The translations under genes were made by a program, and so were the position numbers. DNA of 35,583 bases from Catajapyx aquilonaris (taxonomy: Eukaryota): NCBI GenBank assembly GCA_000934665.2, contig JYFJ02004006.1:1-35583 (forward strand), read 5' to 3'. The notes under the pieces were generated by a model that saw only the letters and a list, made by a program, of their open reading frames with translations, was not told the DNA's origin and searched no databases. Of the stretch, positions 9,055 to 34,830 are shown piece by piece. The stretch's first letter is position 1. The number at the start of each line of letters is the position of its first letter.

Positions 9055-12000
9055 TCAAGCATTGACATGAATTGATATGAAGTCCCGGTACCGCAAAACA
9101 CGAGTGAAGAACACGTAATGATCCGGATCGCAAACGGTGGACACTCCTGAACTAACAATCCCTTGCAACACGAATCTGGGCTTGTTGTTGACCATAACTC
9201 TGAAGACCATTCCTCCTCCGCTGTCTCCAGGACACACGGTTTTACCTGCAAAAGACATACGGTGTCAGTTTTTTTTTAATGCAAAATTTGTGAATATGTC
9301 AACAATAATGTACCGTCTTCCTTTCCAGCGCAGTAGACAGTATCAGTTACGCGAGACACAGCAACACTGTCCTTAAAGCTTTCTATGCAAGTGTTGTGTG
9401 AAACCACTGGCATTTCTACTTCCATCAGATCCTGAGACACTTCACCTCTGTCTGTCAGTCCCCATCCCAATATCTGCGAAATAATTTTTTGTATAATTTT
9501 ATGTGCATTTCACATATTGCTTGGTGAGACTAGGGAGCATATACTATACATAAGAGGCGCAAACATTCGATTTCCGCGTCTCTCTGTTTGGGGTGTTGCC
9601 AAGGCTGGCGGCCATTTTGAAGCGGGGGCAACGCCAACGAGGGATAAATAGGGTACAGGCAAAAATAGGGTCCGCCATCTTTGATGGTTTTGCGGCCATG
9701 GCAACTACACGGCAAGAACACGCGCGAATCAAAAATGGCGGACCCTATTTTTGCCTGTACCCTAATTATACCTCGTTGGCGTCGCCCCCACTTCAAAATG
9801 GCCGCTAGCCTTGGCAACGGCCCAAACAGAGAGACGCTGAAATCGAATGTTTGCGCCTCTTATGTATAGTATATGCTCCCTGGTGAGACTTACAGTCCCT
9901 TTCTTGCCGTGTATTGTTGTAAAATCAACTTCACTCGTTCCTAGCACTCCAGGATAACATGCTGGACGAACGTGGCTTGTTATGTGCACAGGTTCTTTCA
10001 GTACGACAAGAGCAATGTCAGGTTCTAGTATCCTCCAGTTGTACCTCGGAGATATGATTAGTTCTTCAGGCTGAAATTACAAACAATTGTCCCTATACCA
10101 CTTCCTTGTACACTACATTATACTGTACAGTACCTCTAGATACTGGACAAACTCTTCGTTCTCATCAATGTCTATGTACATCTTTCCAAAGCCAAGTCTC
10201 ATACTGGCCGGATCCCTAGTTTTGGAGCCTTGTTGAGGTATCGTCACACAATGGGCGGCTGCAAAAAATAAGTCCATAGTCATCTGTTAGCTCATCCTTC
10301 AATTTATTTCTTTTTTACCTGTCACCACAACTCTGTCCGACACCAGTGTACCGCCGCAGTGGTACCTCCAAGTACCTCCGGCATTGTTGTAAAGAGCCAC
10401 ATGCCACGGCCATTCGCCTCTGTCCGGAATCTCTCCATTCGACACAAAACTTATGGTCTTTCTAGCATTTTTGACGCCACAAGCTGTAATAATAGTGCGA
10501 ACATTATAGAATTGGCTCTATGCCTCTGTTTGTCCGGCGCCATCTCCATGAGGGATATGGTAGTACTGCGTTGACAATCCATAACCATATAACCTTACTT
10601 GGAATGCAATGAATTTCATTTTGGGTGTCCCATTGTCCATCGCTGCCACAGGTCGAATGGCTTATGGTTATTCCTTTGGGCTCATAAAATTCGGCACATT
10701 GGTAGCTGACGATGGATCCTGGTGCAATTGGTTGATCGCAAGGGATTGTTCTTCCTCTGGCCGATTCACACCTGGTTGCTACACCCGCCTTTGGGATAAC
10801 AGGCAGACAACGATTCTCTTGAGGATGATCTATGAATCCTAACTGAGGTTGCAGATCTGGTGTTGGAGCTGCTGGAGTTGGTTCAGGCACATTTGGCTGA
10901 TAATATTCTGAAAAGAATAATTAATGAATCCATATAATGAAGGAGAAAGTTTGTCGGTATGTCCGTGCTACCTAGCCCACTTCCATGCTACTGAGAGTGC
11001 TGAAACTTGCCTTTCTAAATGTCCAAAATTTATGATTTTTTTTTCTCTATTGTGTCGATGCATGATTTTGAACTTTGGCCTTTGTTAGTATAAATATGGT
11101 TGATTATACCTCCTGGTTGAAGCTTGCATGTGAAATGCCTGTAGAGGTCGCAGGGTTGGGTGATCCAAAAGCTGTGCCATTCGACCTCGACGCAGTTACT
11201 GGTACCGTCTGTTACTGGTTGTCCGTCGTTCCAATGGGTAAAATCCACTGCGGTTCGGTCGCTCCATTCAAACCGGCCTATTAGATCCCAGTTTAATCCT
11301 ATCCACATCCGAAAGTACAGATTTCCTGAAAATTAAACATGAATAATATTATCTCATTGTTATTATTTTTGGGGGAACCTAGCAGATGTAAATCAGGCTC
11401 GTTTGGCTCTTGAAGTGATTAACAGATAATTTTTTTCTGAGCATTTTGTGTAATTGTGATGTGTATAATCTTTTGCTGTTGTACAAAAAGGGTACAATTT
11501 GTCTGACTTACCTACTAAAAACTTGTGTTCATCGTCGCTATGAATACTTGCAAGATCTGCGTTTCTGTGAAGTTTCTTGCAAGTCGACCTGGAATTTGCC
11601 CAAGTGTCCGCAACGTCAGAAAAGTAGTAGCACATTCCATTGAAAGGTACCCAATCGGATGGACACATGGCTGCGTGAAAAGACAACAACTTTGATTTCA
11701 ATAGGAAAATGATTTCATTGAAAATATTGCGCAGACTTTTACCTAAATTTAATCCGCATGCGAATAACTTGCGTTCCTCGCACGAAGTAGTGATCCATTC
11801 ACCAAAGTCGTGCTCGTAATCAGATCCAACCATGTACAACTGTCCACACTTCTGGTTTCCATAATTATTCGGTTCACCTTTCCTCCACTCAGTGAAGTCC
11901 ATTGAAGTTCCGTCGCTCCATTGCCACGATTTGGAGACAGAGTAAAGTCCTACCCAAAGTTGCCATCGCAATTTCTCTGCCAAAAATATTGTAATTAATT

Positions 12001-12605
12001 TAGTTACTTGTAAATTTGAGCTGGCACATAATGATTGAAAATACAATACAATTCAATTGCAATTCAATGCAAAGCTCTACATCAGATTTTTTTTTTAAAG
12101 TCGATACAACCGGACCTTACTGTGCAAGTAATCCTGCTCCTCTTGATCATGGATGCTGATGAGGTGTGAATCTGAATGCAAATTTTTGCACGCATCCAAC
12201 GCTTCAGGCCACGTAACCTTATAACTAGGAGTGAGGTAGCAAAAATTGTTGAAAAGTTTCCATCCAGATGGGCAAGACTGACCTTCAACTGACACAGCTG
12301 AAATATTATTAGAAAAATTATGTAAGAAAGTGACGGCATTCACTAATGCGATTAATATTAGTTGATTAGACTCGTAATGAGAGTTGATTAATTAAGCTTA
12401 TATAAATTATTAATATTATATGCCAATCACATAGTAGGTGTTTCTTGGCTTCAATGAACTTCAGCAGCTTTTTTTACAGTATGTAATTACATTAATTACC
12501 TTCATTGCTATTGAATCATGAACATTACGCGGCTGTCACTTATTATTAAAACAACAACTCACCTGATACAAAAATTAAAATTTGAACGAATGTTGCTCCC
12601 ATCAT
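9055..12605 (-). CDS. Gene A: secreted 2xCTLD - Wonton/Sushi-like - serine protease (ModSP/HP14-like catalytic part)
   Basis: Exon 1 MMGATFVQILIFVS (12605-12563). CTLD1 about 12297-11743 (EPN), CTLD2 about 11672-11113 (QPV), 6-Cys domain about 10810-10600. Activation site KTISF|VSNG; triad TAAHC / EPDIAL / KTVCPGDSGGG; stop 9055; minus-strand AATAAA at about 9021-9026. Confidence 0.9.
9531..9882. mobile_element. Foldback MITE (about 350 bp, long TIRs), copy 1, in a gene A intron
   Basis: (T)AGGGAGCATATACTATACATAAGAGGCGCAAACATTCGATTTC... is mirrored at the right end (...ATGCTCCCTG); arms about 150 bp around a short unique core. Flanked by direct repeat GTGAGAC (9524-9530 / 9883-9889), or GGTGAGACT on a 9-bp reading. 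Confidence 0.92.
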
Positions 12606-13092: not shown

Positions 13093-16000
13093 TTACGGAA
13101 TATGTTCAGCAATCATTTCGCTGAACCGTGTGGCACGTGTGAAGAAGATGTAATCTGTTGGATTGCATTCTGTAGACACTCCCGAGCTGACTATTCCTTG
13201 TAGCACGTAACGCAACTGTCCGCCAACACTGACTGGAAAGACCATTCCTCCTCCGCTGTCTCCCGGACACACAGTCTCACCTGGAGTAACAGAAGAAAAA
13301 CAAAGGATGTCACACACAAAATGTTACACAAAATATGCTCACCTCTTAGTCGTCCAGCACAATACACAGTTTCTCTTATACGAAACACTGCGTTGCTGTC
13401 CTGGAAATGTTTTATGCACCTTTCCTGACTTGCCACTGGCATTTCGATCATCTGAAGTGCTACAGACACACGATGGTTTTCGTCCAGTCCCCATCCAAGT
13501 ACCTGCATTGTTTTTTTAAAAAATTAACAGTACATATATTTGCGGGCAATATTTATGTGTGATGGGTGTGTGTTACCGTTCCTTTGGCTCCATCAATTGT
13601 GGTGAAATCTATCGTGTCTCCTAGTGCTCCAGGTACACATGCTGGACGGACATATGATGTGATAGTCACAGGTTCTGCCATGACTATAACTGCAATGTCT
13701 GGGTCTAATATTACCCAGTTGTAATGAGGTGATATTGAAATCAGTTCTGGCTGGAAAGATATTAATTATTACATACAATGTTAGAGTGTAAATTCGACGA
13801 ACAGTGATTCTGAGAATATTCGTTTTTTCCAGAATTTCAGCGAATTTTTCGCATATAGGTTGTCGTTTTTTTTAATAAAAGTAACTGCTTCAGGTTTAAT
13901 GCTTTCGCCAAACTTGTTTATCGCCGTGGGTTTGCAGAATATTTAATTTAGGAGCTGCTTACCACTCCATACTGCACATTAGGATCGTCCTCTTCGTAAG
14001 GGCTGAACAATTTACCGAAAGCTAATCTGACATCAGAAGGATTGTGTAATGTAGCTCCTCGATTTCTGACTGTCACGCAATGTGCAACTAAAATAATAAG
14101 AAACATTATTTGGCTAATTTTTCATCAATTCGGGGGGGCAATGATTTTCAAAGTGAACTTACCAGTGACTACCACTTTATCTGAAACAAGTGTCCCACCA
14201 CAGTGATATTCCCATTTCCCTCTGTGTCGTATGTATATTCCAACATGCCATGGCCACTCTCCCCTTCGAGGCGTGTTGCCTCTCAGAATCAGCGAAATTG
14301 TTCGCGAATTGTTTCTGAGTCCGCAAGCTGTAAAATGTGTATAAAAAAAATCGTGTGACTTGATTTTTCGAAAAATTTCTGTGACAATCGAGAATAGAAT
14401 CGCCTGGCAGTTAACTCACTAGGTTTGCAGGTGAATGTACCATCATCAGACCAATCTCCGTTCCTTCCACAGACAGCAATCTTTCCTGTACCCTCATAGA
14501 AATCTGAGCATCTGTAAGATGCTGTGCTCCCATATTCAACGGGATGCTGGCACGTTGTACGGTTGCCTTTCACGTTGCATTGTACTGTAACACCCTGGGG
14601 TAACGATTCTTGCGGTATGGCCGGACAGTACGTGACATCCTGCGAAGTGGTCGGAAGTTTTTCGTACGTTACTTCAGGACGAGATGTGACATGTTGCGTA
14701 GGTTTCAATGGCGATCTGGATTCTCCTGTCTCAACGGTTTCACACATTGTACTTTCTTTCGGTGCTGCTGTGTACTTCTATACTCACCTAACAATTGGTA
14801 CTTGCACAGAAAGGGCTGCAAATCCTGACAATCTGTCGCCTTCCATTCTAATCCAACCAACTTGTAAATCCAAAGTTCGGCGCATTGTTTACTGACACTA
14901 CCGTCTGAACTGATCTTGTTGTAATCCAACGCACTTCCGTCACTCCAACCCCACTGATAAGGTGTCTTTGAATGAAGTCCGATCCATTGACGAACATACA
15001 TTCGATCTGAAACATTCAACTGTCAGAAAAAAAAAAATCAAACGGAAAGAGAGAATAAGCCGATTAGGTATACCTAATCGGCTTATTCTCTCTTTCCGTT
15101 TGTCAGTCCCGTTTCTACTTATAGTTATGGTATCTCTCGCAGGGAATGGCATGAATATTATTATTCTTGCAGGGAATAGTACTGCGCATTTTGCATTTCT
15201 TTGCACATGTGTCTCACCTACAAAAAACCTGAACTGGTCATCGCTGTGAATACTAGCCAGGTCAGAACCTTCGTGTATCTTGACGCATTCACGTCTTGCT
15301 TCGTTCCAAGTGCGTAACTCGTTTGGCAGGATGTAACACCATCCGTTGTAATGCTCCCACCTTGGAGGACAAGCAACTGATGGACATTATGAGGATGAGG
15401 AGTGTCCACTATGGGAAGTTGTTGGCCTCACCTGATCGCAATTGGCATACGTAATGCTTCTGATTGCTGCAATCCTCACTCAGCATGTAGCCTTGGCTTC
15501 CTTCAATTCCTGAGTATTCCAGGTATATGCTGGAGCACCTCTTGGTGTAAGGTGTGTTCGGTTCGCCTCCTTTCCATCTGGTGAAATCCACAGAACTTTG
15601 GTCGCTCCATACCCAGCTTCCAATACTTGAGATTGAATTTAGTCCTGTCCATATGTACGATCGCATAGAGCCTGGAAAAATATTTTTTTGAAGCCAATCC
15701 TTGACAACTAATAAACTTGTTGGAAGCTAACTTACGTGCAAAAAAGACATGTTCCTCTTCACTGTGTATGCTGGCCAGATCAGCACGAGGATCAAGTCTT
15801 TTGCATGTCTTTCTCGCCGATTCCCAATTTTGGCGATAGCTGGAACTGAAGTAACAACTCTTTCCAAAAGTGTCCCATCCTTTAGGGCATGACTCCTCTG
15901 AATTTAGACCTGCAAAAAAATAATAATTTGCGGTTGGTTTCTCCCAAATTATTGCACAATTTGCACAAAAGTGTTGTGCCATGTGAATGTCCTTCAGAGG

Positions 16001-16868
16001 CCAACAATATTCTTACTATACAACATTCTTTTTTTCCACGCCATTTCCTAGAAGGACTCCGAAAGCCATTTTTTCGAACCAGAAAGTTCTAGGAATGGAA
16101 TACCAACCTAACAATTAGGGGGGGGGGGGGGGGGGGGNAATTATTAAAGGAAATAATATCTGTATACACTGCATCGCAATAATTGATTTGTCTTTTAACT
16201 TATTTATTTATTTATTTACTAGCAGCGGAGCCCGTTCTTCGCACAACCTGTTGCCATGGTAACCACAGTTGCCACGGCAACCAAACTTGGACAAACAAAC
16301 AGACAAACTTATAATTTTTCTTAACCGTAATATAATATTTATTTGCATATTTTTAAAAATACATTACATTGATATAGATTCAAGTTTTTTTCATGACTAT
16401 AGTGACCCTGATTGGTGAGGTCGTATAAAAACACTTTTTTTATTGCAATGCCGTAGGGTCCAAAAACCCTGACCTTGAGACTTGCCCTGCCTCAATAAGA
16501 GTGTGTTAATGACGTGCGTGTTACGGCATACATTTCAAGTAGTAAAAATATTATACACGTTTAAATAATATCTCACGTGCAAACACGCAGAATTTCGCTA
16601 AAATTATCTCGCAGTATTTTTTTGTGTGTGTTCGAGTGCAAATATAGATGTGGCATGTTTGTCATGCACCAATTTTTAGAAGGCGTAATTAGGAGTTGTT
16701 TTTTTTTTGTAATAATATAAAACTGGCCGTAAAATCGCAATTCCTGTAGTAGCCTATAATATGTTAAGTGAAAAGGATTAATAATGACACTTATTGTAAC
16801 AAAAAATAATCCATACCTGATATCCAAGATGATGCGAGAAGAACTGTTGAGATGAGCTGTAGGTTCAT
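13093..16868 (-). CDS. Gene B: secreted 2xCTLD - Wonton/Sushi-like - serine protease (mosaic of C-type head and A-type tail)
   Basis: Exon 1 MNLQLISTVLLASSWIS (16868-16817). CTLD1 about 15909-15432 (EPN), CTLD2 about 15376-14788, linker plus 6-Cys domain about 14726-14421. Activation RTISL|ILRG; triad TVAHC / DPDIAV / ETVCPGDSGGG; stop 13093. Confidence 0.88.
15039..15102. repeat. Perfect 64-bp palindrome with no spacer, in a gene B intron
   Basis: CAAACGGAAAGAGAGAATAAGCCGATTAGGTA|TACCTAATCGGCTTATTCTCTCTTTCCGTTTG, centre between 15070 and 15071. Confidence 0.95.
16118..16138. other. Poly-G run ending in an ambiguous base (possible contig join or low-quality point)
   Basis: About 20 G followed by 'n' in gene B intron 1. 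Confidence 0.8.
16219..16310 (-). mobile_element. Short Helitron-like remnant carrying two RFX X-box-like palindromes, in gene B intron 1
   Basis: Minus-strand end GCGAAGAACGGGCTCCGCTGCTAG|T next to (TTTA)n, with an ACAA/ACAG microsatellite at 16290-16308. GTTGCCATGGTAAC at 16250-16263 and GTTGCCACGGCAAC at 16268-16281. Confidence 0.45.
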
Positions 16869-17798: not shown

Positions 17799-20700
17799 TT
17801 AAATGTCACTGAGCTTTCTCACTATCCAGTGTGAAAACACGCTGACACGTGTGAAGAAAGTGAACTTTGTAGGGTCGCAAGCTTCGTGACGTGTCGAAAT
17901 ACCAAAGCTGGTAATTCCGTACAGGAAATATCGTTTGCTGCTTCCGGAACCGACCGGAAACATCATTCCGCCTCCGGAGTCGCCTCTGCACGAGTTGATT
18001 CGCGTACCTTCAAAGAAACATCAGCATATTAATAATAAGCTCATCGGAAATAATATTTTTGCAGTACTTCGAATAATAGTTAGTGTGTCTTTCTTTTTTT
18101 TACCGTTTTGAAATCCGACGCAGTAGTTTGATTCTCTGACGTAACTCTTCTCAGTACCTTCCAAAGAACTGCGACACTCTTGATGATGAACGTAAGGAAG
18201 TTCAGCAATTTGAAGCTCGGTGGCTAATTCACCACGGTCTGTTGTGCCCCATCCAACCAGCTGCAATTACTCTTCATGTACTACACAAAGCAGATGGAGA
18301 GAAAAAAAATATTATGTGTACTGACCACTCCTAATGACCCAGGCTTCAACGCCTGGTCCTCTTCGCTGGTTCCTCTTCCCAAAGGAAAACAAGCTGGACG
18401 AACCAGAGGGTTGATCTGCGCAGGTGTTTTCAGGATAACTATTGCAATGTCAGAGTCGAAACTTGAGGGATTGTAGTATTCGTACACCAAGATTCGATCA
18501 ACCTGAAATTGGTGTCGTACAGGTGGCGCCACAAGCCGATGGCGGAAAAAGAGCGAAACAATTCGCTAATTGGCCGCCAACGGATCATGTCGCCACCAGC
18601 ATTGTACAGTATACGTACGGTACCTCAATAAGTTGGGCTGATGATTCCTGAGCGTCGTACTGTCTGTAATATTTCCCCAGACCAACCATCATGTTCTTAG
18701 GTGCCATTGTCTCCACACTTCGACCTAACACGACGCAATGAGCAGCTGAAACAGTTCGCGTACCATCATGAGCATGAGCAATATTTTTAATTAGTTGCCA
18801 ATACTTGCCTGTAAGTACTGCTCTTTCGGACACCAGTGTACCTCCGCAATGGTAGTCCCATTGTCCTTTTATTTGCACATAGATTCCTGCGTGCCATGGC
18901 CATTCGCCTCTTCTGGCATCGCTGCCTCCAAGAATCAGAGAGATGGTCGGAGGCGTCGTTTTAACACCGCACACTGTCAATTACATCATTGTAAATCATA
19001 TCTACAATAGCCAACTTTATACCTATACTAGTACTACGTATAGAAAGCGAAGCAGTGCGCAGGCCAACGAACGTTATTGTGGCTTTGCCCACCACGACGA
19101 ATATGTCGCGGGGCGAATACGCCGGGGGCGAAATTGTCACGGGGGCCAATATGCCGGGGGCGAAAAGTCCGAGACCCGTTTCACTAACCGCAGGCATAGA
19201 AAAATGTGAGCGAAGCGATAGTTTTCTACTAGTATACCTACTAAGATTGCAGGAGAGGGCACCGTCAATTAGAGACCATTCGCCATTTCCGTCGCAAGTC
19301 ACTGTCTCTCCGCTGCCTTCGTAAAATCGGTCGCATTTGTATATGGCCGTAGTTCCTTGTGACAATGGTTGTTGGCATGATGTTGGTCTGCCTCTGAAGT
19401 AACACTCGACTGCGATACCAGGCGGCAAGGACGGTACGGCAGGACATGTCGCCGTACTTGGAGGTGGTGTTTGGTATGGCGTAAAAGGTGCGTTGGTTAC
19501 AGGCCGTTGTGTTGTAATATCTAGAGGCTTCAGCGGCGATCCTGTTTCTCCTGATTAAAAAAAAAAAAAATCGCATCAAATTTTAGCACCGGATTGATGT
19601 TTACGCCCTCACGACTTCAGCCTCGGTCGCACGACCAGACGCTTTACGACCGGCTGTCGCACGGCCAGATGCTTTGCGACAGACAAGTCGTGAGTATCTA
19701 AACAGGCCTTTATCCGGATTAAAAATAACCCACTGCCACATTAGGTCACCCGTTACTAAAGTCCTTCCCGAGAAACTTACCAGACATCCGATATTTGCAC
19801 AGGAAATGTCGCAACTCCTGACAATTCGCCGATTTCCAGTTCAGACCTGCCAGCTTGTAACTCCATAGTTCGGCGCATTGTTTGCCCCCACCTTCCGCAA
19901 CATTCGGCATGACTCTGTTGTAACCCACGGGGCTTCCATCGCTCCACTCCCATTGTTGACCATTCTTCGACTTCAATCCGATCCACTGTCGGACATACAT
20001 TCGCTCTGAAACGCGTTGAGAATGATTTTACTGTCGAGTTATTTTTAAATCGGTTTGTCCGCGGTTAGTCATCAGTTTTCCCATATATGTCAAACATATG
20101 GTACTACGTCCATAGGGGGGCAGTGTTGCCAAGTTTTCTTGTGTACCATAATGAGCAATTTAATTAGAAAAATAATAGAAATGTATGAGTGGGAGAGGGT
20201 CTGTGTCTGTCCACGGTGAGTCATCAGTTTCGCCATCTATGTGAGGCACATGGTACTACGTCCACTGGCGAGGGGGGGGCAGTGTTGCCAAGTTTTCTCG
20301 TGTACCATAATGAGCAATTTATCCAGTAATAGAAAAATAATAGACATTTATGAGGGAGAGGGTGTGTGTCTCTGTCCGCGGTGAGTCATCAGTTTCGCCA
20401 TCTGTGTGAGGCATATGGTACTACAGTCAGTGGGACCAGTGTTGTCATATTTCTTCGTGTATATAATAATGAACAATTAATAGTACAAAATTTGGTTTAA
20501 TGTCGAAACCTTACCGACGAAAAAGCTGAGCTGTTCATCGCTGTGTATGCTGGCCAGCTGAGCACCTTCGTGTATCGTGGCACATTCCGTTTTCGCCTCG
20601 TCCCAGGTGCGCAACTCGTTTGGCAGGATGTAACACACTCCGTTGTAATGCTCCCATCTTGGAGGACAAAACACTGTCAGACAGTATTGTGCGCGTTAAA

Positions 20701-22956: not shown

Positions 22957-23135
22957 TGGCTTTAAAAATAACTGCTACTTTTCTAGTGAAGTATGAATGT
23001 ATGTGGTGATAGGAGTATAGGTGAAGTATAGGTGAATATGTAAAACAATTTTTATTCTCAAATTCCGTTGCATATACACACAGTAAATATTACTCATTGC
23101 AAATTTTCATCCCCAAAAATAATTGTCCCGAATTT

Positions 23136-26100
23136 TTAGTGCCATCTTGAGAGGACACGGAGGATCCATCGAGAGAACTTGCTGACTCGAGTGAAGTAGC
23201 TGTATTTGGTCGGATCGCATTCGTACTTCCCTTCCTGAGGGATGCCGAAGCTGACCACTCCCTTCAGGAAGTAGATGGGACCTTTAGCTGATTGGTCAGG
23301 AAAAACCATGCCTCCGCCACTGTCGCCTTGACACACATTTGTTCCTAATTTGAGGAGGAAAACAGGTCATTTATACATAAAATGTTCATGTAGTATCAAT
23401 CCCTTCGCACAGATGGCGCACCCTCCCTCTCTGCACACTACTGCCACTGTGCGGGGGGTAGTGGTACTACAGGGACAGACTGAGCCGACAGAGTCACAAG
23501 CCAATTCTACATCCAATGAGGGATCTGCTCATGTCTGCTCATGTCTGCTCATGTCGATTGTAAATCATAATTACCATTGTTGAACCCAGCGCAGTAGATT
23601 GACTTGACACTGGCCGATTCCAGCTTGTGAAGACTTCGCGTGCACATTTGCTTGTCAACCACTGGCAACTCGGCTTTACGAAGCTCGTCTGCTTCTCTTC
23701 CAGATTCCGTCAGGCCCCAGCCAACAACCTTTAAAACAAATAACAATAACAAATTCATAAATTATTATTACAAAACTATTAGCGGACCCATTGTCAAATT
23801 TTGGAAACACTTGGCACACCCTCAACTTGGACGATAGGCCACTACCATATGAACACTCCTGCCTCTCTCAGGGAGAAAGTAGTACTTCCTGCACGTTGGT
23901 GATGAGTCATTTAGCGGACAAAGTCCACCAGGTGGCTATACTACTTTGTCCTCTAAATATTGTTGAGAGGAAAGTGAATGCTACGGTAACTAGGTGATGA
24001 GTCGCCTTGTTTATGGGGTGGAGTCACGGGTATTATGATAGGCAAATCACGTGAGCGTGATTTGAGTAGACTTTTTCGCATTGCCAAGGAAATATATTTC
24101 TAATAATTAGACAACAACAATAATTATCTCCGTTTCTCGTTGCCAAGTAACCTAAGGAAGATAATACTAAAGGATGTAGACTAGATCTTGGCAGATAGAG
24201 TGAATCTGGAAAACCGGAAGTGGTCGGTCACCGGAAGTTGAACATGAAACATGTTTAGGGTCAGCTGAATCCGAATCCGAAAACCGTTTGTTTCTATCTC
24301 TTGCGGTTTAGGCTCTGATACCTGTTCACGGACGGACGGACGGACAGAAATATGAGAAAAAGTCTTTTAAAAATGAACTTACGACGCCTATATCGCCAGC
24401 TTCCGGATCTTGTTCGTCACTCTTGAACGGATAGCAAGCTGGACGGACACTCAAGGTGATGGTGACAGGACTCTTCAGGATTATGATTGCCAGGTCATTC
24501 TCAAAGGTTATTGGATTGTACTCTGCGTGAGGAATCAGCAATTGGGGCTGAAAATATTTTGTTTCGTACAGTTAGTTGTACTTATTTGTCAAATTTTTTC
24601 GTTGGAGGAGGGGGAGGGGGGCACGTAATACCTCTTTGAATTGAACGGCATCGTTTTCGATGGCAAAGACGCTGCTGATTTTTCCGAGACCGACGACCAT
24701 ATCTTCGGCGATCATAGCCACCTTTGTTGTTGCATTAGGAGTGACACAATGGGCAGCTAAAAATATTATTGAGAAAAACTTCAACAATATTAAATTTTCT
24801 AACTTCATAACAGTAAGGATCTATATATGCAATGTTTAATGAGATTTGCATATCTACTGTACGTAATCAAGTTGGATGAAAAGATGGGGAAGTTTCGCCC
24901 CCCTGAAATATTCGCCAAATTTTTTTGTAACTCACCTGTAATTAGCGCCCTGTCCGAAATAAGTGTTGCTCCGCAATTGTACTTCCATTGCCCGAATGAA
25001 TTTCTGGTGTACAGAGCAGCATGCCACGGCCACTCGCCACGTTTGCTCGGTTCTCCTCCGTGCACAAATGATATCGAAAGTGACTGCGTGTTCCTCTTGC
25101 CACATGCTAGGAATAGTTATCAAACATAATTAATAAATTAATAAATTAATAAATCATACTTACTTGGTATGCATCTAAAGGTGATTTCTGGGTACCATGT
25201 ACCGTCAGTGGTGCATTTGGAGTACACACTGGGCCATCCGCCTACGTGCTCGTAAAATTCGTCGCAACCGTACTCGACCTCGACCCCTGGGTCAGCCGGG
25301 TCATTGCAGGACACAATGTCTTGGGTCAACACTCGGTAGCACCTGGTTGTGATACCAGGCTTCGGTTTTATGGCTGGACATTGCACGTACCCGCTGTTTT
25401 CCAGCACTACAGGTGGTGGTCTGGTCGTGGCTTCGGTTATTACCGGTACCCGTACCGGTACCTGCACCGGTACATGCACCGGTACAGATGGCTCGGTTGT
25501 TCTTGGTGGCTGCACCTCTGGCGAATCTGAAATGTATTGTGTTAATGTTTGGTACACATCGCGTAGAACAATCCGTACTGTTTATTTGTATCCTGCATGT
25601 GAAGTGTCGGTATGAATCGCACTTGTGATTCCACCATTGACCGTCCGACGCTGTCTCTCCGCATCGTTCTGTCTCCAGGTTGTTCGGTTCTCCGTTTTTC
25701 CAGCTGGCGAACACCAATGGACTTCCATCACTCCATTCAAACACGTTCGAGTTCTCCAGGGAGTTCAGGCCGATCCAGAATCTAGAGTAGATTTGGCCTG
25801 GAATGTTTGGGAAACAAATACAATTTTACATGATAATACAATGCACAATGGACTATCGAACCCGTTGCCAAAAAATTGGCAAAAAAACGTATACTTTTAA
25901 TGAGATGGCCCGCCGATTTACCACCTCATACTAATTTTAACGCATAGATGGCGCACACTCACTCTGTACACTCCTGCCACCTTCAGGTCGATGGCGATAC
26001 TATCAGGTTGGGCAAACATATAAGCCTAAAAATCCTGCTTACCTACAACGTACTGCATTTCCTCCTCAGAATTAATGCTTCCCAAATCCGAGTCCTGATG

Positions 26101-26884
26101 AATTGTCTTGCAATGTCTCCGTGCATTGTCCCATGTTTCTTTCGTATGCGGAAACATGTAGCAAGTACCATGGAACAAATCCCAACCTTCAGGGCACTGG
26201 TATGCTGTCAAATACATTTTTTTTAAAACAATTTGATGTGTCAAAAAAATTAATGAACAAGGGTCATACCTGTGTACAGTTTGCATACGAATCGTCTTAT
26301 TTCGCTGCATGACGTGCTGTACCACGTGCCTGAATCGTGCTTTCGGTCAGTTCCGGACATGAAAATGTCAGTGCATTGCTCATTGTCCTCATTGTTGGGT
26401 TCGCCAGCCTGCCACCTAGTGTATCCTAGTGTACTTCCATCACTCCATTCCCAGATACCCGTAGTGTTACGAAGACCAATCCACAACTGCCAGTACATTT
26501 TGCCTGACCAAAAAATAATAATTACACTGGTAATGATAATTTTCACTCATATTTTTTTCTGTCATACTTGTGAAGTAATCCTGTGTATCCTGCGAGTTGA
26601 TACTGGCCAATTCCGACCCTTCGCGAATTTTGATGCAGTTTTCGCGTGCTTCCATCCACGTGGTCTTGTATTTGGACGTGTAGTAGCAGCTGTTGCCATG
26701 CTTGTCCCATCCCAAAGGACACAGGCTGGGTCCTCCGACGTTGTCATGATGCCTTGCAACTCTTCTCCCAGCCTCGATTCCTAGAAAACACACTTGCTGG
26801 CCTTGACGTAATAAGGTATATACGTAACATACACTTACCACCCGAAGCAGCTCCTAACAGCAGAAGTAGTAATAACTTCTCCAT
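23136..26884 (-). CDS. Gene D: secreted 2xCTLD - Wonton/Sushi-like - serine protease
   Basis: Exon 1 MEKLLLLLLLGAASG (ATG 26884). CTLD1 about 26781-26270 (EPN), CTLD2 about 26205-25580 (EPN), Pro/Val/Thr linker plus 6-Cys domain about 25527-25163. Activation LSISF|VHGG; triad TAAHC / ENDLAI / TNVCQGDSGGG; stop 23136. Confidence 0.9.
24211..24350. repeat. Second copy of the DINE-1/Helentron-associated-like repeat, in a gene D intron
   Basis: ACCGGAAGT x2, GCTGAATCCGAATCCGAAAACCGTTTGTT, TTTAGGCTCTGATACCTGTTCACGGACGGACGGACGGACAG. Confidence 0.6.
25852..26028 (-). mobile_element. Second copy of the same Helitron-like repeat, in a gene D intron
   Basis: Colinear similarity to 28749-28902 in a non-homologous intron; further fragments near 23405-23447 and 23790-23810. 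Confidence 0.55.
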
Positions 26885-28191
26885 TTGGGAAAACTCAACT
26901 ATATATGAGTGAACTCAATTCATTGTGAGTAACAATCCCTGCCTGTTGAGAATAAAAATGTCCCACCAACTTGAGGATGTTTTAAACTTGAGAAAAACCA
27001 GAGTCGAGACTGAAGTTGCTTGACTACGATTCTCTTAGTTTTTTCCACTTCTCGCCTGAGGGTGTTCAAGTTCTTGATTTTCGCATCCCACAGTATGACG
27101 TGTAGGTCATCCAGCCCACTTTACCTTTCCACAGCACTAGTGTGTGAAACAGAAATCCCGAAATCCAAGGTGACAACAGCGGAATTTCACCTATTCACAG
27201 AATCTGCATCATAAACAATATTAGCAACTACTACTCATAATAGCAACAAAACTTTTAATATTAATTACAATTAAATCATTGAGTCTCTCGTGAGTATGGG
27301 GTGTACCATATCTATAGTACGAACGAAAATTCAGGAAAAATCTGACAAATAAATAATGTGTAGGTTTTCACACTGATTACTGTATATTATGAATTATTCA
27401 CAATGCTTAATCAAATTGTTCTTAATATGAGTTCATACAATCGTTGTTTAAACAATCTATTTTTATAATCTATCATTTTTGGGCCTTTCATCGCGTATTC
27501 GTATTATTTAAAAAAATTTAATAGTGCGACGTCATCATAAGGCCTACCTCAATAATGACCATGAACCTTTTTGTATGCGCATATACATAAAGTATTACTG
27601 ATCATGTTGCAAACAAATTACATAACTAAGTCTATTAATTCAAGTGCAAGATTGGACTGTACTTTTTGATACTAGGCTACAGAAAATGCAACGCCATAAG
27701 GCTATTCCATTCCTACCTTAATTCGAAGCTGGAGTGGCGCTGGTCATTAATCACGAGAATCCTCAGGAAAGTGTTGAAGGTCATACGATTGCATGTAGAA
27801 AACCAGCGTTTTTGCAAAAGGTACGCGCAGTTCTAGGATAGTGAATAGCATGCTCGCACTCCACGTACAGTAGGCCACAATGGTTGTTGAAGGATTATTT
27901 AATAATGTTTAATATCACATGAATTCTGCATGCTTCTCTCTATATATTGCACTTGTTTTCTGCTTATCATCGTGTGGACTAATTAATATTGTTTTGACAT
28001 TTGATATTTTGATCATTCTGCATTGATGTGATCCCACTGCTAACTTAGCAGCAACTAGAAGTGGGACGAAAATTCCACCCATTGTAGTTATAACATAAAC
28101 TGGAAATATTCAGCGCAGATCATATTCAAAAGAGTGATCCAAAGTTTATTTATATTATTTGTCGGAATAATTTTATTTGAACAACGAGGCA

Positions 28192-31100
28192 TCACTTGAA
28201 ATCGTCTCCCCACTCTGCCTCCGACAGAATCCGCACAATCCAGACAGAAAACTTGCTGACTCTTGTGAAGTAGCTGTACTTGGTAGGATCGCAGTCTCTC
28301 GTCCCTTCCTCGGGTATCCCAAAGCTCACGACACCTCTCACGTAATACACAGGTCCGGACGGACTCGTCTTGGGAAACACCATGCCTCCTCCACTATCTC
28401 CAGTACACACGTTTGTTCCTTTAAAAATAAATTGTGAAACGTTGATAAAACCGCAGCCAACAATCGTTGGTAAACAATCATTATTTACCATTGTTCCAAC
28501 CAGCACAGTAAATTGAGCTGAATTTGTGGCTAGGATTGATGTTCTTGAGGCTCTCCGTGCACTTCCGCTTTTCAATGACAGGAAGTTGAGTCATCTGAAG
28601 TCTTTCGGCCACTTCACCAGTCTCTGTGCGTCCCCATCCGGCCACCTTGCAAAAAAAATTCAGCAAATAAAATGATCAGAAAAATTATGCTTCATATACA
28701 CCAATTATTTTTTTGCAACTTACTAAAAGTCAATGTTAAGGTTAAGTACTAGTAAACCCGTTGCCAAAATTTGGCAGAACCTGTAATCAGCATGACTGTA
28801 ATGAAATCGCCCTTCGATTTACTATTCTTCACGCATAGATGGCGCCCATATCGTGACTATCACATCGGACAAACATCAGACGGAGAGAATAAGCCTATTA
28901 GGAGAAAGGGTAATTAATGCAAATGCAGTCCGTACCACTCCGTATTCATCGAGTATATCTTCATCGTCATCTTCGGCATCAATTTGACCCTGTGGAAAGC
29001 AAGCTGGACGAACATGCGGCAAGATTCGAGCTGAATCCTTCAGGATGATGATGGCCAGATCGTTTTGGTTGAATTCCGGACTGTATTGTGGGTACATGAC
29101 GAATTTTTGCGGCTGTAATGGTTGGAGCATTGAATCACTGTTAAAATTAAGCAATTATTATCTCTTAGATAAATTATTCTAAGTCGAATTTGCCTCCATA
29201 ACCGAACTAATTTTTAAAGCACTTTTATTTATCATGTGAAAGGTTCGGGCAGGGAGCATATACTACATAAGAGGCGCACACATTCGATTTCCGCGTCTCT
29301 CTGTTTGGGGCTTTGCCACGGCTGGCGGCCATTTTGAAATGGGGGCAACGACAACGAGGTATAAATAGGGCACAGGCAAATATCTTCGATTCGCGCGTGT
29401 TCTTGCCGTGTAGTTGCCATGGCCGCCGAAACCATCAAAGATGGCGGACCCTATTTTTGCCTGTACCCTATTTATACCTCGTTGGCGTTGCCCCCACTTC
29501 AATATGGCCGCCAGCCTTGGCAACGGCTCCAAACAGAGAGACACGGAAATCAATGGCGCTGACCGAAGTTTGCGCCTCTTATTATGCTCCCTGGTTCGGG
29601 AGGAAAAAAAACATGGTGGTTAACATGTTAGCTCTCTGAAATGCGAAAAACACACACACCTCTATAAACTGCGCGTATTCACTCTCACCGCTGAATTTGC
29701 TGAAAAGTTTTCCGACTCCAATAATCATATTGCTTGTGTCCATCGGAGCCTTAGAGCCAGCAACTTTTGCAGCACAGTGAGCAGCTGCAGAAAACAACAA
29801 TGAGCATTTTTGTTTGTTTGTTTCTCTAACAATCAAACGTGAGGCAACACACCTGTCAAGACCGATCTTTCCGATATGAGTGTACCACCGCAGTGGTAGT
29901 CCCATCCGGATCCTCTTCTGGTGTACAACGCAGCATGCCATGGCCATTCACCACGGTCACTGCTATGCCCATGTGTCACAAAAGAGATTGTCCTCTTGCT
30001 GGATATCCCACAGACTGTGAATAATTTCCATGCTGCCGACAATGCTCATCATGTTATTAGCAATGACTTACTTGGATTGCAGGTAAATGTCCTCTCAGGA
30101 AGCCAGCCCCCGTTGGGCCTGCATCTTGAGAAAGCGTATGGCAGACGACTAGCAGGTTGGTACAGCTCGTCGCAACTGTACCTTATCTCGACCCCTGGAC
30201 TGACTGGTTCGTCGCAGGGTACCACCTGCTGTGTCTCCTGGGTGTAACACCGGGTGTTAACACCGGATTTGGCCACAATCGGATGGCACTTGGATGATGG
30301 ACCGGGTGTGTTTATTGGCTTTGTTGTGGTAGTGAAAGGTGGTCTGTACGCTGTTGTTGGTCTAGGTGTAGTTCTGGTTGTTGGAGGACGTGCTTGGACC
30401 GGCCGAGATGCGGTACCGGTACCTATAGCATGAACACCAATTAATTTTCAGACTTTTTCTCATTGAAAAAAAAAAGAAGCCTACCGTCCAATACAATTCG
30501 GCATGTGAAGTGCCTGTAGATCTCGCAGTCCTGTCCTTTCCATTTCCCATTCCAGTCTATCTCAACGCACTTGTTTGGAGCGAAGTCTTCTCTTCCGTTC
30601 TGCCAGTTGAAGAAATCCAATGCTGTTCCGTCGCTCCATTCGAACCAATTGTGGTTCTGAATGGAGTTCAGTCCGGTCCAGTACCGGAAAAATAATTTGC
30701 CTGAAACAGTGAAAGCCCAAATAAAAATTTTCCAGATTAAAAAAAAGGGTGGATAAAACTGAATCGGTCATTTGGAAAATGGGTCATCTCCAGCGCATTT
30801 ATTAAAAATTACTGGAGATGTTGATGTGCGTCTGATTTTAATTACTGATGTGATTAGTTAATTACCTACTAAGAAGCGATGTTCTTCTAAGGTGTGGATG
30901 CTGGCCAAATCTGCTGATTCGTGCAGATCTTTGCAATTTTGTCGTGCTCTTGACCATGAAGCTAGTCTAGGAGGCACGTAGTAACATATACCATGAATCA
31001 GTTCCCAAGTGTCAGGACAACTTGCTGCGGAAATATTGGCAAGTCACAGATAAAGTTCACTTAATTGTTATAGTATACGTACCTGTTTCTAATTTACAAG

Positions 31101-32070
31101 CGTATGCACGTGTTTCATCGCACGACATCGTCTGATAGACTCCCTTATCATTCTCGTAGTCGTTTCCGATCATGTAGAGTTGGACGCATCTTTTTCCAGG
31201 GTCATTTTTGGGCTCGTTGTCTTCCCATTCCATAAAGTCCGTTGGACTTCCATCGCTCCATTCCCAGTGTCCTGGACTTCTCATGGAATTCAGACCAATC
31301 CACATGTCCCATCTCATTTTTTCTGCAATCCACGCAACATATTCATTACAATATCAAAAATACATGCACTGGTTTATATGCAAGACTAGCGCTGCAGATG
31401 AGAAACAAATAAATTTTTTGGGGGGACACTTAGACTTCAAAAAGACTTTTCGTTGCATCATCAGCATGTAAGACATCTGCGTGCCAAATATCAGAACTAT
31501 TAGTAGCCTAAAAGTGGGCGAGGTAGCCCGGACATACATACCAACAAACTTTCTGCTTTATTATTATGTAGAGAAGTGGGATTAAAATGCAAAATTCTTC
31601 TCTTATTCCATCTGTTTATACTGTATCAATAAAATTATTTGCAACGTTTCATTAGACGCTGGTACTAACTGTGCATGTAGTTTTGTTCCTGGTTGTTGTG
31701 GACGCTGACTAGGTCAGACTTTGGATGTGCCCCTTTGCATGTCCGACGAGCCGATGACCACGTGGCTTTGAATCCGGAAGTGTAATAGCACGAGTGGCTA
31801 TGAAGCTCCCATCCCAGAGGACATGGTTTACCTGATGTTTCATCAGAATTGAAATTTAAAAAAAATTTGCAAATCATTAAACATCATAAGCTCATGATGT
31901 GTAACACTCACTTTCAGTATGATGTCGCTGGCTTAGCTGTGCTGACACTATACCTACAAGTTTCAATCACACAAGACACAATCTATGAAGTAATAGTACA
32001 GAAATAATATTTGAAACTGGTACTCACCTGACGTGCACAGAATAAGTAGCGTAATTAGTGTCACTTGCAT
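28192..32070 (-). CDS. Gene E: secreted 2xCTLD - Wonton/Sushi-like - serine protease
   Basis: Exon 1 MQVTLITLLILCTS (32070-32028), small exon about 31953-31912. CTLD1 about 31831-31083 (EPK), CTLD2 about 31024-30485, Thr/Pro linker plus 6-Cys domain about 30422-30071. Activation RTISF|VTHG; triad TAAHC / QNDLAI / TNVCTGDSGGG; stop 28192. Confidence 0.9.
28749..28902 (-). mobile_element. Non-autonomous Helitron-like element in a gene E intron
   Basis: Minus-strand 3' end reads hairpin TGCCAAATTTTGGCA then ACGGGTTTACTAG|T. Shares AACCCGTTGCCAAAA-TTGGCA, CGATTTAC, CGCATAGATGGCGC and ACTATCA..GG.CAAACAT with 25852-26028. Confidence 0.55.
29250..29593. mobile_element. Foldback MITE, copy 2 (core inverted relative to copy 1), in a gene E intron
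   Basis: CAGGGAGCATATACTACATAAGAGGCGCAC ... GCGCCTCTTATTATGCTCCCTG; the core is the reverse complement of the copy 1 core. Direct repeat GTTCGGG at 29243-29249 and 29594-29600. Confidence 0.92.
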
Positions 32071-32413
32071 ATTACGTTCAGTTTAGTGCGTTAGTTTGGC
32101 GAGGTTTGGCAGTTGCAGTCGTCATATAATTGCAGGTGGCGCGGAGTTGGGAGGCTGCAAGTACTGGCAGTACTAGTTACGCATCATGCGCATGCAAGTT
32201 TTCCTCGTTGCCCTCGGGACAAGCAGGTTTTCGTGTCTGACCCTGCTTACGTTCATGCTCTAAAAAAAGAAATAAGGATGGCTTGCATACCAAAATTGAA
32301 CCGTCGTCATAAAAGTTACGTTAATTTTTACAATAACACGATGAGATAATAAAACAACAAGGTCGATACAATTTTTTATTTTTTATTTTTCATGCAGATC
32401 AATACAGGATGTC

Positions 32414-34830
32414 TTAATTGGCATAATTGGCAACATTCGCTTTCATTCTGTTGCTCCTCAAGACGTCTTCTGGCGACATTGCGCGATCAATTTTGCAAAT
32501 GTACTTTCTTGAACTGAGACAGTCGATATTGCTCCAGTAGTCGGTTGGGCTGTACATTTGCACGCAATTGTTAACATCTTCTCTTACAGGATGAGAGAAA
32601 CCCCACTTGTCATAAGTGCGATCCTGAGCATCAACCCACACAAAGTCATTGTTGCCCATATTGTGCAATCCAATCCATGAATTTATATGGAGGCGGCCTG
32701 CAGGTGATCGCAAGTGTTACATGTCACAAAGTAATCTCAGTCCTATTCACAAGGAAATTACCTGCAATGAATCGGCTTTCTTCTTCACTACTTATGGATA
32801 CTAAGTCAGCTCCATTCTGAAGCAACTTGCAGTTTCCTCTGGCCCTTTCCCATGACGTACTGAAGTCGGAGAAGTAGTAACACTGTCCATTGTAACTTTC
32901 CCATCTTTCAGGGCATCGGCCTGGAATCATTCAAAAAATTTTGCCACATATTATGTCGAAATAAGCTGATAAGTCCACCAGTGAAGAACTCACCTGCTCT
33001 CAATTTGCATACAAAGGGACGCGAAAAGGCGCATGTTAGGTCGTTCCATACTGAGTCGTCTTCACCATTTTCTCGCAATACCGCGTACATTTCCACGCAA
33101 TTTTCGCCTGAGTCACCATAGTTGTCTGGTTGACCCCCATCCCACTGGGTAAAGGTCACCTGACTTCCATCGCTCCAGACATGCTTTCCAGTTTCAGCCA
33201 ACTGATTTAGTCCGATCCAGACCGCTGGAGTCATCAAATCTGAAACAAAATAAATTCTTCCTATATGCTGCAAGCTTGTGATATTTTTGTAGATCTACTT
33301 ACTCTTAACAAAATAGTATTCATTTTCGTCAATCATTGTAACCAGAACAGCTCGTTCGTCTAAATTGCCACATTCCTGAAGAGCCTGCAGCCATTGCAGT
33401 TTATCTCGAGAGAAGTTGTAACATCTGGCGTCATTTCTGATCCATCTAGGAGGACATGGGTTGGCTTCTGTAATATTAAAAGTGCAGTAATGTGATGATA
33501 CATTTTTTTGTAAATAAAATGTGAGTACCTTGCAGAGCGAATTTGCAGACAAAGCGACGTTTATAATCGCATCCAAGGTTGTTCCAATTTTTTGTAAAAA
33601 GTGCCTCAGTACACTGCTCGGTGTCCAAATTATTGGGCTCGTTTAGATCCCATCTGAGGTAGTCAATTGCACTTCCGTCCGTCCACCTCCATTTCGCATC
33701 AGAAGAAGTGTAATAATGGCCTATCCAAACGTCCTTAACCATTTCACCTGAAACACAGTCCAGGTTAATTAACGTTTATTTATGTTGAAGTCGTTCTTGG
33801 TACGCGTATAACAATGACTTACTTGATAGGTAAGACTGCTCATCTTTGTCACTGAAACTGACCAAATCTGCACTTTTATTTTGCACGCAATAATTCCTCG
33901 CATCTGCCCAAGTGGCTCTGAAAGTCGAAAAGTAGTAGCAACTCGATAGTCTCCTCTTCCAGTCAGGCGGACATGCTCCTATAAAAAGGAACCAATCCAT
34001 GTAAAACATTTCTAAGGACCTGAAAATATCATTATTAACACCAATATTTTACCTCTAACGTTTGTTAATTCGCAGGCAAAGTTAAATTTCCTATCGCAGT
34101 TATTGTCGTTCAATCTTCCTGTTTCGATGCCCATTTTATAGTTAGTTTTCTTTAGGACTAGTTCTATGCACTTCTCTTCAGCAGAGCTGGGTTCATTTGC
34201 ATCCCAAGTGAGGTAACCGTCGACCACTTGAGTACCATCACTCCATTTCAATTCGTCTGGCTTCTCCAGGGAATTAAGTCCAATCCACATGTCTCGATAC
34301 AAACGCTCTGAAAATATTGAAATATGCAATTCAACGGAATGTATTGAACACCGGAAACACCTGTTTAAAAATTATGGAATCTTCTCTAATAGACAAAGAC
34401 AGTTTTCTGACACATCAATGAGAGTACATCTGAATGAATATTGGACAAAATGATATTCCATGCAATAAACCTGTGGGACTTTGTTGGTTCAAGTTTTAAT
34501 ATATTTGCAAATTATTGACTTACTTGTCACTACGTTAGCTTCTGTCTCACTGTGGAAACTGGCCAATTCAGCTCCAGGATTTGATCCTTGGCAGGTCCGT
34601 CGAGCATCGTACCACGTTTGCGTTTCTTTAGAAATGTAATAGCAGTTATCTCCGTAGTATTCCCAACCATCGGGACATGTCTTGCTCTCTGTTACTACAA
34701 CGGGAAAGAGACACTTACAATAAGAGCTCTATTATAACACCTGTGTAAAATTTGCAGAGTCTAATAAGATAAGGCGAGAAACAATACCTGTGCAAACTAT
34801 TGCACTGAGAAGTACGCACAACAGGAACAT
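32414..34830 (-). CDS. Gene F: secreted four-domain C-type lectin with no protease or transmembrane segment
   Basis: Exon 1 MFLLCVLLSAIVCT (34830-34788). Four CTLDs, each split over two exons: about 34694-34053 (EPS, LND), 33979-33529 (EPN, WNN), 33468-32994 (QPD, WND), 32922-32414 (HPV, WSN). Stop 32414; minus-strand AATAAA near 32376. Confidence 0.88.

Follow-up and report, generated by a model that had tools for sequence, protein, structure and literature searches.

Lectin-headed serine protease zymogens of probable ModSP type in a tandem array of Catajapyx aquilonaris

The step from recognition to the first proteolytic cut is the least understood part of the Toll and melanisation cascades of arthropods. 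A 35,583-nucleotide (nt) stretch of the Catajapyx aquilonaris genome (contig JYFJ02004006.1, positions 1 to 35,583; the window hereafter) raises the question of how the two events might be joined in one protein. An earlier note on this DNA had described five head-to-tail genes, each encoding a signal peptide, two C-type lectin-like domains (CTLDs), a Pro/Thr stalk, a six-Cys Sushi variant and a serine protease, next to a free lectin with four CTLDs, and had likened the proteases to the insect initiators ModSP and HP14. Are the lectin and protease exons parts of the same genes, to which proteases are they akin, and what might the lectin heads do? We found that the CTLD-CTLD-Sushi-protease architecture is real and is carried in one mRNA, and that the catalytic half appears to be of the ModSP/HP14 kind.

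Genes and transcripts

The array occupies positions 9055-34830 of the minus strand, where one gene for a 4-CTLD lectin (LEC) is followed by five 11-exon lectin-protease genes (U1-U5); the positions 34830 and 9055 are exactly the ATG of LEC and the last base of the U5 stop codon. The window looks eukaryotic, with a GC content of about 0.42 and coding sequence broken into short exons. A Pfam scan of 50 stop-to-stop open reading frames (ORFs) returned a fivefold pattern of two Lectin_C domains, one Sushi domain and a Trypsin domain in four to five pieces, with each CTLD of U1-U5 spread across two exons. The Sushi match was weak (17-26 bits) and exceeded the cut-off of 20.7 in two of the five units. 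Four further CTLDs lie at 34728-32417 on the same strand. They confirm the free lectin of the earlier note, which had placed it after the array: this holds in plus-strand coordinates, but in the direction of transcription the lectin comes first, 343 bp upstream of U1 and in like orientation.

Spliced models were assembled manually, guided by GT-AG sites, reading frame and consistency among the paralogues; the first (signal-peptide) exons of U3, U4, U5 and LEC were placed by a heuristic scan only. Six complete reading frames were obtained (Table 1), and the products of U1-U5 measure 651-686 amino acids (aa). Among the 50 introns of U1-U5, 49 are GT-AG and one is GC-AG (U3 intron 7), and many are only 52-75 nt long. 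Intron phase is 1 at all domain borders and 0 for the two introns that interrupt the protease domain, those after exons 8 and 9. AATAAA follows the stop codon at a distance of 15-80 nt in all six genes, LEC included, which fits six separate transcription units. The GC-AG intron (18746-18808, 63 nt) has the donor CAG/GCAAGT, where the other four genes have GT. AAG acceptors occur at three introns (28646, 23729 and 18008), those of U1 and U2 being borne out by the contig joints described below.

In the spliced products, every residue could be assigned to signal peptide, CTLD, linker, Sushi-like module or protease. Each of the five has a hydrophobic first exon, six Cys per CTLD, six Cys in the Sushi-like exon and eight Cys in the protease part. 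A linker of 32-48 aa, 31-59% of them Pro, Thr or Ser, connects the second CTLD with the Sushi-like module, and a Cys-Gly linker stands between that module and the catalytic domain. The His/Asp/Ser triad is intact throughout (TAAHC, or TVAHC in U4; D-I/L-A; GDSGG). Pfam and the spliced models thus bear out the five composite genes as first described. There was no Ldl_recept_a match on the 50 ORFs and the U2 contig contains no extra exon; this lack of LDLa repeats in U1-U5 agrees with the proposal that an LDLa head had been replaced. Nor did we find a separate canonical four-Cys complement control protein (CCP)/Sushi domain, each protein having a single Sushi-like module preceded by the Pro/Thr linker. 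CUB and EGF domains likewise gave no Pfam match on the ORFs, where only Lectin_C, Sushi and Trypsin were found. That is, U1-U5 are secreted mosaic serine-protease zymogens with two long-form CTLDs and a Pro/Thr stalk instead of LDLa repeats and a canonical CCP.

To relate these models to transcripts, we compared them with contigs of X1, the sole public run that contains the region; no run recorded as RNA was listed for it. Its kind, library and tissue are not on record and the depth of its contigs is no measure of expression; it contains 0.42 of the sampled words, which is near the exon fraction. The comparison covered LEC, U1-U3 and part of U4, with U5 outside the compared stretch. X1 contigs skip introns that have GT..AG ends on the minus strand, with 0-1 mismatches at the modelled joints. 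One contig of 2410 nt (27205..23108) carries the whole coding sequence (CDS) of U2, and joints in it mark nine of the ten U2 introns precisely where the model places them. The remaining intron falls in a repeat stretch and fits by arithmetic, as 321 nt of 5' untranslated region (UTR), 2061 nt of CDS and 28 nt add up to 2410. A second contig (1388 nt) skips six of the ten U1 introns (62, 57, 68, 547, 290 and 70 nt) and links the second exon of CTLD2 and the Sushi exon with the full set of five protease exons. In addition, a 2213-nt contig has one piece on U3 exon 6, where a full-length mRNA of 168 nt of 5'UTR plus CDS would put it, and a 395-nt contig matches the last LEC exon. Separate transcripts for lectin and protease exons, named at the outset as the finding that would speak against fused proteins, were not seen; X1 contigs join both exon sets in U1 and U2.

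Catalytic half, lectin heads and known relatives

If the proteases belong with ModSP and HP14, then their catalytic domains should group with proteins of LDLa/Sushi architecture. When 1.84 billion representatives were searched exhaustively with the N-terminal half of the U3 protease, 1066 matches were obtained at E <= 0.001; the best 150 of them, ranked largely by summed multi-domain scores, were considered. The best identities among these were about 40-52%, so that neither the species nor a close relative is represented in that library. Pfam analysis of 70 returned or fetched proteins revealed many insect and springtail proteins with LDLa, Sushi and Trypsin domains, some of the LDLa/Sushi relatives bearing the NCBI names 'modular serine protease', 'modular serine protease-like' or 'limulus clotting factor C'; others were Gd-type, CLIP-type or multi-protease proteins. 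Lectin_C was present in none of these 70 relatives from the best 150 of 1066 matches. A hidden Markov model (HMM) of the CTLD, run over 175 fetched proteins, matched only P0083, in which the protease precedes the CTLD, and five protease-free multi-CTLD proteins. Of three word-based protein searches, with the Sushi exon, the CTLD1b-CTLD2a ORF and the protease N-half, two were empty and the one with the CTLD ORF returned only five protease-free 'mannose receptor-like' multi-CTLD proteins, and a PDB sequence search with the same N-half gave only generic elastase, chymotrypsin and kallikrein matches (1e-8 to 1e-5). Four loci from a scan of metagenome contigs by exon-7 alignment were dismissed as chance, the matches spanning 9-25 residues and tblastn with the six window proteins being empty.

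We then placed 74 near-complete protease domains in a careful IQ-TREE analysis (support given as ultrafast bootstrap/Shimodaira-Hasegawa-like approximate likelihood ratio test). The five domains of U1-U5 formed one clade (100/97). They were joined at 95/91 by three LDLa/Sushi rows, namely two domains of one protein (P0007) and a Folsomia candida protein, and a clade at 94/87 added 27 insect LDLa/Sushi rows. The CLIP rows, the 12 Gd rows and P0043, a scorpion protein named 'clotting factor C-like', fell outside this ModSP-like clade. The nearest protease domains among those found were P0007 and Folsomia P0149/P0165, with HMM scores of 241-275. The kinship with the ModSP/HP14 kind that the earlier note suggested was thus recovered at 94/87, away from the Gd and CLIP proteases and with reference rows assigned by architecture or automatic name. 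P0007 itself consists of four LDLa repeats, Sushi, protease, a Wonton-like module and a second protease-like domain with His>Gln and Ser>Ile exchanges.

The module preceding the protease gave a corresponding picture. An HMM built from the five six-Cys modules matched the module directly before the protease in ModSP-like relatives at 2.6e-18 to 1e-8, with the best value for a protein fragment (2.6e-18), followed by the nearest relative (3.5e-14), Folsomia (7e-12) and a beetle 'modular serine protease' (4e-9). All six Cys columns were conserved in the alignment of window modules and relatives; the comparison with the Wonton module ran via these LDLa/Sushi relatives, not via HP14's own. An AlphaFold2 model of the U5 module from an 11-row alignment reached a pLDDT of 89.1. 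In Foldseek against PDB, all matches listed through rank 50 were CCP-containing chains (factor H, beta-2-glycoprotein I, C1s, C2, factor B), with TM values of 0.51-0.62 and E-values of at least 0.015, weak as expected for 78 residues, and 27 of 30 ESM atlas feature matches were Sushi sets. The 'Sushi variant' of the earlier note corresponds to the pre-protease module of LDLa/Sushi relatives; judged by HMM and alignment the two are homologous, and the models predict a CCP fold. P0088 also has a Thr/Pro linker ahead of its six-Cys module, as do the window genes.

Activation site and specificity pocket were read from an alignment with 49 reference domains. The predicted activation bond is ISF/V in U1, U2 and U5 and ISL/I in U3 and U4, and P1 Leu or Phe was also found in most ModSP-like and Gd-like reference rows. 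Residue 189 is Asn or Thr in all five copies, and Asp189 is never present. At positions 189/216/226, U1 and U2 have N/G/S, identical to the nearest relative P0007, against N/G/T in U3, T/G/I in U4 and T/G/V in U5. Two Cys are conserved in U1-U5, one in the linker ahead of the activation site and one in 'RPAC'; in related clip and modular proteases this pair keeps the two chains linked once the bond is cut. PMC10732536 mentions an interchain disulfide for cSP48. The same source describes ModSP as a chymoelastase-type protease that prefers P1 Leu and autoactivates with PGRP-SA, GNBP1 and peptidoglycan, or with GNBP3 and glucan. The predicted S1 pocket of U1-U5 is non-tryptic, as in ModSP, and such a pocket combined with the proteins' own Phe/Leu activation bond would in principle permit self-activation in trans. 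Taken together, the C-terminal half, with its Sushi-like module, Cys-Gly linker and predicted non-tryptic S1A protease, looks to be of the ModSP/HP14 kind by sequence.

What, then, do the lectin heads bind? All ten CTLDs of U1-U5 are of the long form, with six Cys including the N-terminal pair and an aligned W[IVT]GL motif. EPN occurs in five of them (CTLD1 of U2-U5 and CTLD2 of U2) and WND in none, so canonical Ca-dependent sugar binding is not predicted. In LEC, CTLD3 (32994-33467) combines QPD with WND, the only fully canonical galactose-type site among the 14 CTLDs in the window, and two domains are near-canonical (CTLD1 with EPS and LND, CTLD2 with EPN and WNN). The 'dual-CTLD glycan sensor' of the earlier note is therefore not backed by the sequence; the heads of U1-U5 may bind sugars non-canonically, or bind proteins.

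Compared with ModSP of Drosophila, HP14 of Manduca and Tm-MSP of Tenebrio, U1-U5 share the protease clade, the pre-protease six-Cys module, the Cys-Gly linker, P1 Leu/Phe, a non-Asp189 pocket and the form of secreted zymogens. ModSP is described as S-4/5 LDLA-CCP-Wonton-PD (PMC10036332), and the HP14 orthologues have the same architecture (PMC1761132). The LDLa head of HP14 binds beta-GRP2 (PMC7215089), both ModSP and HP14 need separate receptors (PMC7215089, PMC10732536), and their autoactivation has been hard to reconstitute (PMC10732536). U1-U5 differ from these initiators, which depend on separate PGRP, GNBP or beta-GRP receptors, in having two long-form CTLDs and a stalk, but neither LDLa repeats nor a separate canonical CCP, and in forming five tandem copies. 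Since two defining ModSP features (LDLa repeats and separate CCP) are missing, we do not file U1-U5 as members; they are a head-swapped ModSP variant, not a canonical member. The nearest proteases, two F. candida isoforms automatically named 'limulus clotting factor C' (P0149/P0165) and P0007, share the pre-protease module, but their heads consist of two to four LDLa repeats, not CTLDs.

Factor C of Limulus and Tachypleus, a zymogen that unites sensor and protease in one chain, resembles U1-U5 in its lectin-like and Sushi parts; its activation bond is Phe-Ile, where Phe-Val is predicted for U1, U2 and U5. Its single CTLD is accompanied by Cys-rich, EGF and LCCL domains and by five Sushi repeats, and it senses lipopolysaccharide (LPS) via its N-terminal region, not via the CTLD. 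In contrast, U1-U5 contain neither the Cys-rich/EGF/LCCL set nor five Sushi repeats, but only Lectin_C, Sushi and Trypsin. The scorpion 'clotting factor C-like' P0043 (an automatic name) has Asp189 and falls outside the window-plus-ModSP clade of a tree that includes no horseshoe-crab Factor C. PMC11836539 presents Factor C as a mosaic zymogen that senses LPS, activates autocatalytically at a Phe-Ile bond and includes a lectin-like domain; a title in its reference list speaks of a 'mosaic of complement-like, EGF-like and lectin-like domains'. A receptor and an initiating protease in one chain are thus not new in kind, and Factor C is the closest precedent for the concept, though with another architecture and specificity.

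Other lectin-protease systems resemble U1-U5 in part. MBL/ficolin-MASP follows a like logic, a C-type lectin unit with a CCP-preceded autoactivating protease, but uses two proteins. MASPs have CUB-EGF-CUB-CCP-CCP heads and a tryptic pocket, and on this description rests the contrast of MASP, C1r and C1s with the window ORFs, in which no CUB or EGF match was found. The lepidopteran immulectins have two tandem CTLDs, are secreted and are tied to prophenoloxidase activation; they are free lectins without a protease domain. CLSP1, CLSP2 and CLSP3 of Aedes aegypti have the same two domain types in reversed order, with an N-terminal protease, a single C-terminal CTLD and no Sushi domain (PMC6070988), an order shared by P0083. 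A barnacle shell paper (PMC4519255) was rejected as a precedent, as the lectins and proteases there are separate proteins. The earlier note knew of no characterised protein with this architecture, and no description of CTLD-CTLD-Sushi-protease turned up in our literature and protein searches either, a provisional result with most subscription journals and InterPro outside their scope.

History and proposed function of the array

Full-length identity among U1-U5 is 35-53%, so that the panel is indeed strongly diversified. dS was saturated (>1) in all pairs tried, and dN/dS was about 0.1-0.34 wherever computable, which fits purifying selection, roughly; Cys counts are even and conserved across the copies. 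Judged from these values, the five copies are probably old and under purifying selection.

One copy appears to have been reassembled. U3 and U4 are 76% identical in CTLD1 and 67% in CTLD2, falling to 44% in the Sushi exon and 40% in the protease, whereas U4 and U5 are 36-37% identical in each CTLD and 57% in the protease. The trees conflict in the same way, the CTLDs of U3 and U4 pairing at 100/100 and 100/99 and the proteases of U4 and U5 at 100/99, and in a sliding comparison the identity of U4 switches near the start of the protease domain. These conflicts in identity and trees mark U4 as a mosaic of a U3-like lectin head and a U5-like protease. Because dS is lower for the U3-U4 heads than for the U4-U5 proteases, the simplest reading would be a head exchange between U3 and U4 that postdates the U4/U5 duplication. 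Phase-1 introns at all module borders make such exchanges possible without a break of frame. The CTLD tree was resolved only for the U3-U4 pairs and did not show descent of the heads from a LEC-like gene.

The characterised members of the group, ModSP, HP14 and Tm-MSP, are described as immune initiators (PMC10732536, PMC7215089), and by analogy a role in humoral immunity is most likely for U1-U5. On balance, we lean towards tandem, transcribed, lectin-headed ModSP-type zymogens that start an extracellular cascade as the best explanation overall. The lectin head would dock the zymogen on a multivalent ligand: the surface of a microbe or of altered self, or else a partner that has itself bound a ligand, such as the neighbouring 4-CTLD lectin. 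Neighbouring zymogens could then cut one another at the Phe/Leu-Val/Ile bond, which would fit a chymoelastase-type pocket, while the catalytic chain would stay tied to its head via the linker Cys and the 'RPAC' Cys. The activated protease would cleave downstream zymogens after Leu-type residues and so feed an extracellular cascade. The copies would pair different heads with different pockets, at least one head having probably been swapped between neighbours.

A bolder form of this explanation takes the array as a self-contained germline panel, in which each dual-CTLD head senses its own ligand and autoactivates a chymoelastase-type initiator: a single-polypeptide analogue of lectin complement on a ModSP scaffold, with new pairings by neighbour exchange as in U4. 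We regard this form as possible but doubtful. A glycan-sensing, self-contained immune function is a reasonable hypothesis, weakened on the point of the sugar site.

Several observations weigh against an immune initiator of ModSP type. WND is missing from all ten protease-linked CTLDs, none of which therefore has a complete canonical site for Ca-dependent sugar binding. The clade uniting U1-U5 with ModSP-like proteins lies, at 94/87, just below the star of the tool, and the rows of the tree carry labels taken from Pfam architecture and automatic naming; none is a ModSP, HP14 or Factor C sequence that has been characterised by experiment. The dN/dS values are rough since dS is saturated, and they involve no test for positive selection. 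Upstream of the six genes, kB-like motifs occur twice in 3.6 kb (0.22 per kb across the window), numbers too small to be informative.

Could the array serve a non-immune extracellular role, such as embryonic patterning, moulting, cuticle or matrix remodelling, reproduction or digestion, with CTLDs that direct the protease to a glycoprotein or matrix of the animal itself? Gd-type proteases are among the sister groups in our tree, and Gd and Nudel serve dorsoventral patterning (PMC10036332). The protease-linked CTLDs are without a canonical WND, and the window itself offers no link to immunity, its flanking genes being ionotropic-receptor-like. However, in the tree the catalytic core sides with ModSP-like proteins and away from the Gd rows, and an old fivefold expansion, diverse heads and a lectin neighbour would be more typical of recognition families. 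Since the characterised members are immune initiators, we consider such a role unlikely, though of the alternatives it survives best. Were it true, the array would represent ordinary domain shuffling in the very large S1A family of arthropods.

Alternatively, the proteins might be immune initiators that are not self-contained, the CTLD head docking on separate recognition proteins in the manner of HP14, whose LDLa head binds beta-GRP2, with LEC as a possible partner. HP14 and ModSP rely on separate receptors (PMC7215089, PMC10732536). Moreover, the site that is incomplete in all ten protease-linked CTLDs is canonical in one and near-canonical in two domains of LEC, a gene 343 bp upstream of U1 and transcribed in the same direction. 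Being neighbours says little by itself about partnership, though, and invertebrate CTLDs with non-canonical motifs have often been reported as binding microbial ligands, so that we rate this arrangement as rather improbable. That the lectin exons form genes apart from the protease exons, or that the copies are pseudogenes, is very improbable indeed: although the models were built by hand, with heuristic first exons in U3, U4, U5 and LEC, and the kind of X1 is not on record, the six frames are complete with consistent intron phases, the X1 joints are exact with 0-1 mismatches, dN/dS is well under 1 and Cys counts are conserved.

As lectin-headed ModSP-type zymogens, U1-U5 would provide a natural fusion and thereby a minimal one-protein system for clustering-induced autoactivation, one that parallels Factor C and MBL-MASP independently. 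With five diverged copies, the mosaic U4 among them, they would in addition illustrate the re-pairing of phase-compatible exon modules within a tandem array.

Feature coordinates and surroundings

Table 1. Features of the window, with S1 pocket residues given in the order 189/216/226
Feature	Position	Strand	Description
LEC	34830..32414	-	secreted 4-CTLD lectin, 9 exons, 565 aa; introns all GT-AG; AATAAA 27 nt after stop
LEC exons	34830-34788, 34694-34524, 34307-34053, 33978-33823, 33747-33529, 33467-33303, 33239-32994, 32920-32762, 32697-32414	-	
U1	32070..28192	-	signal peptide-CTLD-CTLD-linker-Sushi-like-protease, 11 exons, 672 aa; S1 N/G/S; predicted Phe-Val bond
U1 exons	32070-32028, 31831-31670, 31322-31083, 31024-30866, 30700-30485, 30422-30072, 30014-29853, 29784-29660, 29112-28936, 28645-28489, 28418-28192	-	
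U2	26884..23136	-	U1-type architecture, 11 exons, 686 aa; S1 N/G/S; predicted Phe-Val bond
U2 exons	26884-26839, 26780-26568, 26503-26270, 26204-26043, 25797-25579, 25526-25164, 25106-24936, 24756-24632, 24547-24383, 23728-23575, 23344-23136	-	
U3	21885..17799	-	U1-type architecture, 11 exons, 661 aa; S1 N/G/T; predicted Leu-Ile bond
U3 exons	21885-21837, 21438-21265, 20981-20742, 20673-20515, 20005-19781, 19550-19242, 18973-18809, 18745-18624, 18502-18326, 18260-18104, 18007-17799	-	
U4	16868..13093	-	U1-type architecture, 11 exons, 653 aa; S1 T/G/I; predicted Leu-Ile bond; exon 1 inferred only
U4 exons	16868-16817, 15909-15736, 15671-15432, 15376-15218, 15006-14788, 14725-14420, 14327-14163, 14087-13963, 13750-13577, 13502-13343, 13280-13093	-	
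U5	12605..9055	-	U1-type architecture, 11 exons, 651 aa; S1 T/G/V; predicted Phe-Val bond
U5 exons	12605-12563, 12297-12121, 11976-11743, 11670-11512, 11325-11110, 10907-10599, 10483-10319, 10258-10134, 10070-9894, 9473-9314, 9245-9055	-	
Six-Cys module, U5	10600..10833	-	part of exon 6; Pfam Sushi 26.1 bits
Six-Cys module, U1	30073-30297	-	equivalent module
Six-Cys module, U2	25165-25392	-	equivalent module
Six-Cys module, U3	19243-19464	-	equivalent module
Six-Cys module, U4	14421-14642	-	equivalent module
Ionotropic-receptor-like genes	~1600-8311	-	two in tandem; Lig_chan pieces
Cys-rich ORF	2-493	+	163 aa, open at window start
Foldback element	9529-9884		U5 intron 9; 157-nt inverted arms, 94% complementary
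Foldback element	29264-29532		U1 intron 8; 80-nt inverted arms
Tandem repeat	20056-20424		U3 intron 4; 165-nt unit, 2.3 copies, 84% matches

An Rfam search of the whole window gave no family match. In the ionotropic-receptor-like genes that flank the array, Lig_chan-Glu_bd was matched at 1.1e-11 and IR75A_N weakly (3.7e-5, under the curated cut-off), which points to an arthropod genome. The Cys-rich ORF at the start of the window shows a recurring 'ELPC...PC' spacing and has no Pfam match. The single N of the window (16138) lies in U4 intron 1 and adjoins a homopolymer run, with a repeat at 16139-16226; a possible small assembly gap at this point could affect the model of U4 exons 1 and 2. The foldback element in U5 intron 9 is of the kind of a miniature inverted-repeat transposable element. 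Its relative in U1 intron 8 consists of pieces 88-93% identical to it, with inverted arms of its own, and the two elements give similar ORF translations from both strands.

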